This document shows, piece by piece, positions 8,701-10,655 of a stretch of DNA of 10,655 nucleotides. The position numbers were made by a program. Numbering within the stretch: position 1 is the first letter of the stretch; the number at the start of each line of letters is the position of its first letter. The stretch is from the IMG/VR virus record IMGVR_UViG_2690316115_000011, positions 1 to 10,655 of that record; one strand, written 5' to 3'. Origin of the DNA: a virus (Duplodnaviria > Heunggongvirae > Uroviricota > Caudoviricetes).

Positions 8701-10655
8701 TGATAAAACGGGTCACACCTGGTTTCTGGCTGTCGAAGGTGAATCCCGGGTAACCGAAGAGCGGCCAGTAAAATCTGAAACACAGGATATGCTGACCGAA
8801 GAGGTCGCTCCAAAAGTTAGCGCTGACATGATGATTGAGTTTATCTCTCAGGAGGGGGCTAAAACCTGTGAGGAACTGGCGGGGAAGTTCGGTGTCAGCA
8901 CTCGTAAGGTTGCTTCCACGTTGGCGGTGGTAACAGCAACGAGACGCCTGGTACGCGAGATCAGCAACGGAAAATTCCGTTACAAAATGCCTGATGTCGA
9001 AAACGGCGATTTGAGCGCCTTATCATCGCAGAATAAGCAATCACACCATGACGCAGAAAACAGCGCGGCAGGCGATGAAATGAATCGTTTTCCGTTGGCA
9101 TCAGAGAGCACGGCAAAGGCCAGTACAGATGAGTTTATCCGAGAAGTTCCATCATTCACCGAAAAATCTGCCAGTTCGGTGATGCTTCCATCGCTGCATG
9201 CTGCCAGTCGAGAACTTCGTCGCGCCAAAAAACAGGTCCAGAAGTGGGAGCGAGTCTGCGCCGCGCTGCGGGAGCTGAACAAGCACCGGGATATTGTTCG
9301 ACAGATTGTCGATTCATCCGGTCGTATTGTGTCGGAAAAGTGATTGCCGGAGGCGCTTATGGCGAAACCTTTTACACACGAACAGCGGGAAGAACTGAAG
9401 GCACGAATTATCGGATTGGTACGCAAAAATGAACGCATGACGATATCGCAACTGGAGAGAGCGACGGGAGCAGGCTGGCATTCAGTCAGACGTTGCCTTG
9501 TGGATGTACTGGCTTGTGGCGATTTATACATGTCCGGTAAATACGGTGTTTTTGCATCAGAACAGGTGTATCGCGTATGGCGTAAGACACCGGAGAAAAC
9601 AACTGACCAGACATTGATTCGAAAGTTACCAGACGGAGAAATTCGCCGCTACGATAGACGCCTGAACATAATCTGTCGCGAGTGCCGGAATAGTGAAGTT
9701 ATGCAGCGCGTGCTGGCTTTCTATCAGGGGAATTTTCAGGAGGCGGTACTGTGAGTAAATTAGCTATCAGGCTTCAATTGTCGCTGGCATTCGCATCAAA
9801 GGAGAATGAGATGACCACTTTTACAAAAGAGCAGTTAATCAGTCATGTTAGTGAAAATGTAAAGGCGATGAAATTTGCAGTAAAACAGACAGCATTCAAA
9901 AATTCTCTCGAGGCAATTGAGTTGGATTTAGCACTGGCCCTTGTTGCTCAGGCTTCGCTGGAAGCAGAGCCCGTGCTTTATATGAATCGATTTACCGGAA
10001 AGACATTCTCACTGGAAGAGCAACCCGGTGCTGATAAGGAACCGGAAATATACGTGCCGCTATATGCTGCCCCGCCAGACAGCGCCGCCATGCTTCAGGC
10101 TGGAAACTTTCGGGAAAAGAAGGGTTCGTCAACCAATAATTTTCGGGAAATCTCGGAAACGTCAACCAACCATCCGGTAACTCTGGATGGTTGGATAAGC
10201 TGTAGTGAGCGAATGCCGGATGACGGTCAGCACGTAATTATTTTATGTGATGGCGCATTCGTTCTTTATGCGCAATATCGAGACGGTGAGTTTTTTGATG
10301 TAGTCCGTGATGGTGATGAATTTTTCGAAACACAGAGCCGCAATGTAACCGACTGGATGCCGCTACCAGAACCGCCGCAGGAGGTGCGCCAATGAACTGG
10401 CCTGAAGCATTTGCAATTACAGGCGTTGCTATGGCTATCACCTTTTTAGTATATGTTATTTGTCGGTGGGGGTAAAAACGTTCGCCGGGATTAACACCAA
10501 AGGAGGGAATATGTCGGATGATATATCACTGGCAATGGAAGGTGCGCTGGCTGTTATTGCTGTTGTGGGCGTTTACTGCCTGGTTGTGTTTTTGATGGAT
10601 CGACTAGGGAACTGAATTCATTACGATATGGGAATTCCCATATCGGGTAAAAACG

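Follow-up and report, generated by a model that had tools for sequence, protein, structure and literature searches.

Prophage-encoded BstA works by abortive infection: the protein localises to phage DNA that is being replicated and blocks the replication (PMC8585504). The element that silences it, aba, is a piece of DNA within bstA that is variant-specific and works in either orientation; in trans, aba is effective on replicating high-copy DNA alone, and it gives immunity to other phages into which it is moved (PMC8585504). In phage BTP1, bstA sits downstream of the prophage repressor, and aba-BTP1 is a 63-bp element at the 5′ end of the gene, which spans the start codon and carries essential terminal CCCGCC direct repeats (PMC8585504). 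DNA recognition by BstA and the mechanism of silencing by aba are named as open questions in the sole mechanistic paper (PMC8585504). The subject of this report is a perfect 22-bp palindrome, CGATATGGGAATTCCCATATCG, at positions 10624-10645 of a 10,655-nucleotide (nt) stretch of caudoviral DNA (IMG/VR record IMGVR_UViG_2690316115_000011; hereafter the window), together with its counterpart inside a BstA-like KilA-N gene of the same stretch. The palindrome belongs to a widespread family that has its anchor in KilA-N genes; many phages carry it as an accessory orphan, and it is probably the recognition site of the BstA-like protein encoded by its own prophage. No prior description of the palindrome or of its link to KilA-N, and no later paper on the mechanism of BstA, was found in the literature searched.

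An earlier note on this DNA, made by reading the letters alone, had drawn attention to the palindrome; what it observed is confirmed, and its interpretation is supported in part. Self-complementarity is exact over the 22 bp, the gap of 8 nt (ATTCATTA) to the stop codon of a 34-amino-acid (aa) open reading frame (ORF) is as reported, and the length is indeed rare by chance, since ~0.0025 such palindromes are expected in 10.6 kb and 0 of 200 shuffles held a match at ≤3 mismatches; it is also the longest perfect palindrome of the 25-kb locus. The note had doubted an intrinsic (Rho-independent) terminator, and this candidate was rejected, since neither strand shows a T-run or receives a terminator call. 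As single-stranded DNA the 22-mer can form a hairpin, its stem being 9 bp and its loop 4 nt long (-8.6 kcal/mol, z = -3.9). The heptapeptide DMGIPIS can be read in one frame on each strand, as it had noticed, and ties the site to the copy in the KilA-N ORF. Its reservation that the palindrome might be coding for a gene beyond the window edge turned out to be wrong, because both DMGIPIS frames are closed by stop codons in the extended sequence. The longest ORF crossing the site has 17-20 codons on either strand, and the site is intergenic, with hok next. Among the classes of function that the note had listed, an operator-like protein-binding DNA site is judged the most plausible from the sequence comparisons below.

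The window is identical to a lambdoid (Rac-like) prophage of Escherichia coli ML35 except for the first ~130 nt; all 101 listed mismatches to the ML35 record lie near the start (window 1-130). At 5.8 kb from the palindrome it carries a gene whose product is recognised over its full length by PHROG 6287, ‘BstA abortive infection system’ (1.8e-82), in its N-terminal domain by Pfam KilA-N (8.2e-27) and at aa 120-237 by the PADLOC BstA profile (2.5e-20). A tblastn search against BTP1 bstA gave a match of 29% identity that covers aa 133-251. Likeness between the two proteins is confined to the C-terminal domain; at the N terminus the domains cannot be aligned. The gap of 31 nt to the repressor gene, and the gene order, are as for bstA in phage BTP1. 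By its BstA-type C-terminal domain, its KilA-N-like N-terminal domain and its position beside the repressor, the product is a BstA-family homologue with a predicted role in abortive infection. Structure comparison matched its N-terminal domain in fold to Mbp1 and PCG2-DNA, both of them APSES DNA-binding domains, and returned no solved relative for the C-terminal domain. In an AlphaFold model of the protein (mean predicted local distance difference test score 88), D59-M60 form the end of a helix, G61-I62-P63 a turn and I64-S65 the start of the next short helix, which places the DMGIPIS codons in a helix-turn-helix-like segment of the modelled KilA-N domain. The gene copy of the palindrome differs from CGATATGGGAATTCCCATATCG by one mismatch, in its AATC centre. 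An outer inverted repeat, TGAATTA...TAATTCA, lies on either side of it and gives a longer imperfect dyad (window 4784-4827; -12.7 kcal/mol as single-stranded DNA, z = -6.5); this outer symmetry is not kept in distant homologues.

The evidence that selection acts on the dyad as DNA comes from a sample of 64 non-redundant homologous genes of many phyla, collected by degenerate peptide anchors to avoid bias towards the exact pattern or its codons. In these genes 90% of the dyad positions form Watson-Crick pairs about the true centre, whereas ~25% do so in other registers, and pair counting gave 91.5% paired against 29-48% with a slid partner. The 22-mer is perfect in 32 of the 64 genes and the outer 9-bp arms in 43. 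The covariation score was 0.485, compared with 0.157 in shuffles, none of 500 of which reached the observed value, and double-sided changes were found in 9 of the 11 dyad pairs. More than 40 arm variants occur among the 64 genes, the canonical one being common to several phyla, and compensatory arm changes alter the peptide yet preserve the symmetry: SMGIPMD is encoded by GTCCATGGGAATTCCCATGGAC, DIGIPIS by CGATATCGGAATTCCGATATCG, DAGIPAS by CGATGCGGGAATTCCCGCATCG, ETGIPVS by CGAAACGGGAATTCCCGTTTCG and EVGIPTS by CGAGGTCGGAATTCCGACCTCG. A whole-gene scan of codon entropy (66 genes) stayed at ~0.9-1.0 nearly throughout and dipped, to 0.21-0.55, at residues 59-65 alone, where ATA is the Ile codon in 95% of genes, and TCG for Ser and GAT for Asp are each used in 91%; the scan gave no sign of DNA-level constraint at the 5′ end of the gene. 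Thus the 22-mer is the sole synonymously constrained spot in the KilA-N gene, and its dyad is under DNA-level selection. The earlier note had held that a palindrome lying within a conserved ORF and lacking excess conservation of dyad symmetry would speak against a site; the copy at 4795-4816 does lie in such an ORF, and there the excess is strong.

When contigs were scanned for the exact pattern, at least 119 viral ones and at least 80 from genomes held the 22-mer, and these genomes range over Enterobacterales, Nostocales, Saprospiraceae, Dehalococcoidia, Spirochaetia, Rhizobiales and Bacillota. About half of these matches lie inside full-length KilA-N ORFs with diverged flanking DNA. Recent horizontal transfer was rejected as the reason why the 22-mers are identical, because the flanking synonymous sites are saturated. 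A hairpin in the sense-strand mRNA is disfavoured as well, since mismatches in the dyad are balanced (10 G.T against 9 A.C) and show no G.U bias. Synonymous constraint, symmetry kept at the peptide's cost, the absence of G.U bias and the orphans in non-coding DNA would together be consistent with action as DNA. Several Nostocales loci (L127, L128, L168, L123, L125, L143, L159, L164 and L177) encode KilA-N proteins with an identical 22-mer and unrelated C-terminal regions, and so the palindrome tracks the KilA-N domain, not the BstA C-domain. Cyanobacterial genes of this kind are present in several copies per genome, some of them truncated. KilA-N genes with an in-frame palindrome were also seen in giant-virus (GVMAG) and other viral contigs (L498 4486, L527 628, L489 2198 and L537 1940-2021), one of which, L537, has two palindrome-family sites 60 nt apart in a single ORF.

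Compared with aba, the copy at 4795-4816 is likewise a short DNA element embedded in a BstA-family gene downstream of a repressor; constraint appears to fall on the DNA rather than on peptide or RNA, the sequence differs between homologues, and independence of orientation is given for a palindrome by construction. Aba protects another phage into which it is moved, and orphan 22-mers are found in heterologous phages. Identity with the published element was nevertheless rejected on architecture: the present element is a perfect dyad of 22 bp, is placed centrally within the KilA-N domain and has no CCCGCC repeats, and thus differs from the 63-bp element at the 5′ end of BTP1 bstA. Moreover, the N-terminal domain of BstA-BTP1 bears no detectable likeness to that of the window protein, and the copy at 10624-10645, unlike the one at 4795-4816, lies outside the bstA-like locus, its kind usually being found without the gene. 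BTP1 bstA has no palindrome at the equivalent place, and the paper on aba makes no mention of a palindrome in it (PMC8585504). As a post hoc lead, the arm words of the palindrome recur within aba-BTP1 (L462 962-1024), where GATAAGG-T-CCATATC is an imperfect inverted repeat with a 1-nt spacer (9 of 200,000 shuffles).

Outside genes, 128 stand-alone sites are spread over 55 unrelated flank contexts, among them those of many lambdoid prophages devoid of the gene. In most of these contexts the likeness to the gene goes no further than the 22-mer itself and both flanks are unrelated; gene-like sequence on one side was found in L180, L172, L027, L021 and, weakly, at the window copy, and such one-sided flanks indicate that these orphans descend from gene fragments. 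In two loci KilA-N genes are cut exactly at the palindrome edge, with unrelated DNA beyond (L172 4291-4312, compared with L160 736-757, and L180 507-528), which suggests breakpoints at the dyad. Several orphans are placed 0-20 nt past a stop codon. Where at least 6.5 kb upstream was available, none of 19 loci with the palindrome beside hok had a BstA-like gene, and in complete E. coli genomes the BstA-like gene family was found in 139 of 5,426 and the right-end module of the window in 383. Other arm variants gave 22 matches in genes, giant-virus contigs included, and many more as orphans. Tight non-coding clusters of 2-5 different family members were seen in L141 2528-2704, L195 1486-1842, L170 7879-7973, L182 4455-4496, L093 13856-13913 and L544 2749-2797; their palindromes have a common core, GGAATTCC, and differing self-complementary arms, and one cluster adjoins a tyrosine integrase. 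These clusters could be multi-specific batteries of sites. A Pfam search of their neighbours, which found an integrase, a DDE transposase, DUF4406 and a TPS domain alone, was uninformative.

The clearest orphans are those of the virulent Dhillonviruses. Among complete phage genomes the exact 22/23-mer is present in ~70 members of this genus (~70 of 156 genus records), with no KilA-N/BstA homologue found beside it in them; a full-length homologue of the protein was found in only five records of the phage collection searched; in SECphi18 no KilA-N/BstA protein, and hence no hidden reader of the site, was detected by profile search. The site lies ~20 nt past the helicase-primase gene, in a repeat-rich region. 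JL1, SSL-2009a and TheodorHerzl have a single copy of a 31-nt sequence and no palindrome, and SECphi18 (L463 2806-2890) has the 31-nt sequence, then the palindrome, then the 31-nt sequence again. The loci compared for this presence/absence polymorphism of the 22-mer with its duplicated flank include L547-L551 (about 1000-1100); Sponge and Oekolampad have the palindrome with 2 mismatches, and Teewinot (L460 2880-3130) has five tandem ~60-bp units, each with left arm and core. The 22-mer of Dhillonviruses is a dispensable insert, and an essential origin element was rejected because JL1, SSL-2009a and TheodorHerzl are without the site.

At the right end of the window, annotation of the extended sequence (locus L001), which the earlier note had proposed, identified a hok/sok locus. 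The Rfam match to sok and the hok leader (12993-13167, 116.9 bits) begins 47 nt right of the palindrome, the inferred start of the hok mRNA, and the next annotated coding sequence, hokD, lies 216 nt right of it; a putative promoter, TTGCGG-N16-TAGAAT, was read by eye. The left boundary of the hok module, taaaaacggtttgcgg, is directly right of the palindrome, which therefore stands at a mosaic junction, outside hok/sok. In a survey of 121 loci anchored on the 5′ end of the hok mRNA, and so sampled independently of the palindrome, it was present at the same position in 35, had a 1-nt deletion in one arm in 13 and point mutations in 3, appeared as a 20-bp version in a different upstream context in 7 and had no version of any kind in 63. 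Membership of the hok/sok cassette was rejected on these grounds, and the hok locus does not need the palindrome. The note had considered that absence from otherwise identical prophages, with no phenotypic consequence, would tell against its reading; this was seen in part, in that many comparable hok modules are without the palindrome or have it in decayed form, and the copy at 10624-10645 is therefore accessory and not essential. Further right in L001 follow toxin-antitoxin genes of the Doc and RelE/ParE families. To the left, of the two tiny ORFs the second alone is annotated in RefSeq; this ORF is a positional neighbour of the palindrome.

Table 1. Features of the window and of its rightward extension (L001). 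Positions are those of the window unless stated otherwise.
Feature	Position	Strand	Remarks
Orphan perfect 22-bp palindrome CGATATGGGAATTCCCATATCG	10624..10645	.	intergenic, at the junction of small-ORF module and hok/sok module
Gene-internal copy CGATATGGGAATCCCCATATCG (+ strand reading)	4795..4816	-	encodes D59-S65 (DMGIPIS)
Gene for BstA-like abortive-infection protein (predicted), 253 aa	4228..4989	-	KilA-N aa 13-112; BstA-type C-domain aa ~120-237; putative reader of the palindrome
Gene for cI-like (LexA-family) prophage repressor	5021..5734	-	31 nt upstream of BstA-like gene, same strand
27-aa hydrophobic small ORF	10392..10475	+	overlaps stop of DUF551 gene (ATGA); left-hand module
34-aa hydrophobic small ORF MSDDISLAMEGALAVIAVVGVYCLVVFLMDRLGN	10511..10615	+	left neighbour; stop 8 nt before palindrome
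Complete hok/sok type I toxin-antitoxin locus	L001 12993-13407		outside window; sok Rfam 116.9 bits, hokD coding sequence, terminator 13386-13403

We tentatively propose that the 22-mer at 10624-10645 reproduces, apart from the gene, the cognate site of the KilA-N domain and, by analogy with aba, would serve for self-immunity as a decoy, either an additional or a pirated one. A KilA-N dimer would bind the dyad, either as duplex or as a hairpin or cruciform on replicating DNA. Site-bearing DNA, once amplified by phage replication, would suppress the BstA-like protein as aba does BstA, and an induced prophage, or any phage that has gained the site, would thereby escape abortive infection. The extra copy may have arrived by mosaic recombination at the junction of the replication/nin region. 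A wider generalisation, that a KilA-N subfamily in phages, bacteria of many phyla and giant viruses holds its own 22-bp recognition dyad in its DNA-reading codons, so that site and reader are one stretch of DNA and change together, and that phages including Dhillonviruses capture bare copies, single or clustered, as decoys against KilA-N abortive-infection proteins, is doubtful at present.

Several points weigh against the decoy proposal. The binding and immunity roles of both protein and site are deduced from comparison of sequences, the model element aba-BTP1 is of different length, position and repeat structure, and the window protein resembles BstA-BTP1 in the C-domain alone, at the modest identity given above. 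The canonical arms are dominant across phyla, which fits poorly with a strictly variant-exclusive immunity. A second copy accompanies the gene in just 1 of the 5 gene-bearing loci with enough flank, namely the ML35-type prophage of the window. Furthermore, the hok-adjacent copy decays, by the 1-nt deletion in 13 of 121 loci and by several point changes, and this decay, with about half of the hok modules having no palindrome, implies that selection on this copy is weak or episodic. Lastly, template switching at quasi-palindromes during replication could add co-variation of the arms without selection, although it leaves the preference for one specific sequence, and the orphans, unexplained.

Some of the same observations would suit an inert relic, in which a leftover fragment of a KilA-N/BstA-like gene was stranded at a mosaic recombination joint and has no present function. 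The flanks of the two copies in the window are weakly alike (13 of 19 adjacent positions identical; 9 of 15 on the 3′ side), other orphans (L172, L180) are plainly truncated genes, and the site is at the exact left boundary of a hok module that lacks it in about half of the loci and has decayed forms of it in others. Passive decay alone, however, accounts poorly for the exact 22-mer being all that is kept between unrelated flanks in most of the 55 contexts, for a perfect orphan dyad in a prophage whose gene copy is imperfect at the centre, for a discrete insert that a virulent phage genus acquired or kept, and for the multi-variant clusters, so that such a relic seems unlikely. It is distinctly unlikely that the dyad is instead a hotspot of breakage and joining, which through cruciform or hairpin processing or a site-specific nuclease would create mosaic junctions and spread the 22-mer as a small mobile unit. 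Such a hotspot would leave unexplained why purifying selection in the gene is so strong and sequence-specific across phyla, a 22-bp palindrome is short for SbcCD-type processing, and the BstA-like protein yielded neither a recombinase nor a nuclease domain, its C-domain being without a solved relative. What speaks for a hotspot is the location of palindromes precisely at module junctions, the KilA-N genes broken at the palindrome edge (L172 against L160), the insertion-like 31-nt flank duplication of Dhillonviruses with the tandem amplification in Teewinot, and the single-stranded fold.

A local role in transcription or RNA, whether the site controls or obstructs transcription ahead of the hok promoter, like an operator or a roadblock, or stabilises the small-ORF transcript as a 3′ hairpin, is very unlikely. 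The centre of the palindrome is ~57.5 nt upstream of the hok +1 inferred from the Rfam match at L001 12993 and the putative promoter, and several orphans stand 0-20 nt past a stop codon; but about half of the hok modules work without a palindrome, the same 22-mer stands beside unrelated genes in 55 contexts, and both a terminator signature and the G.U bias expected of an RNA hairpin are missing. Besides, regulation of hok/sok is post-transcriptional. Finally, the palindrome might be a sensitising target rather than an antidote, which the BstA-like protein recognises in order to block phage DNA replication, as would befit the behaviour of BstA at replicating phage DNA, where it localises and blocks replication (PMC8585504), and a Dhillonvirus site beside the helicase-primase gene in an iteron-like region. 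This is hardly to be expected, because each family gene carries the site and the prophage must replicate despite its own protein, and because many E. coli phages keep the site though 139 of 5,426 E. coli genomes encode the defence protein; the Dhillonvirus site being dispensable, a harmful one would be quickly lost.

The palindrome family can also be set beside three other kinds of element. Like the operators of phage repressors and Cro, it has dyad symmetry over about two turns of the helix, the core being conserved and the arms variable, in a prophage that encodes a cognate DNA-binding protein; unlike them, it has its primary copy in the coding sequence of its reader instead of a promoter, its orphans are not consistently associated with promoters, and APSES/KilA-N is not a classical repressor fold. 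Solitary repeats of clustered regularly interspaced short palindromic repeat (CRISPR) arrays on phages act as RNA anti-CRISPRs on Cas proteins. Here too, the recognition element of a defence system would be found on phages without the system, but the proposed action is as DNA on an abortive-infection protein. Repetitive extragenic palindromes and bacterial interspersed mosaic elements (REP/BIME), with their REP-associated tyrosine transposases (RAYT), are similar in being short intergenic palindromes, often 3′ of genes, sometimes clustered and tied to one protein family. They differ in numbering hundreds per chromosome and in having an HUH transposase as partner, whereas the palindromes described here are few and phage-borne, with a KilA-N/BstA partner and an archetype inside its gene.

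For the large BstA/KilA-N subfamily, the palindrome offers a precise and short candidate DNA ligand, as judged from sequence, and arm changes coupled to peptide changes would provide natural specificity variants. Orphans are at hand in well-studied E. coli phages, and among Dhillonviruses there are near-isogenic pairs that differ in having the site. If the decoy proposal is true, the palindrome would be a DNA-based anti-defence element invisible to gene-centred searches for anti-defence systems, and its role would account for extreme nucleotide conservation within a protein-coding gene across phyla.

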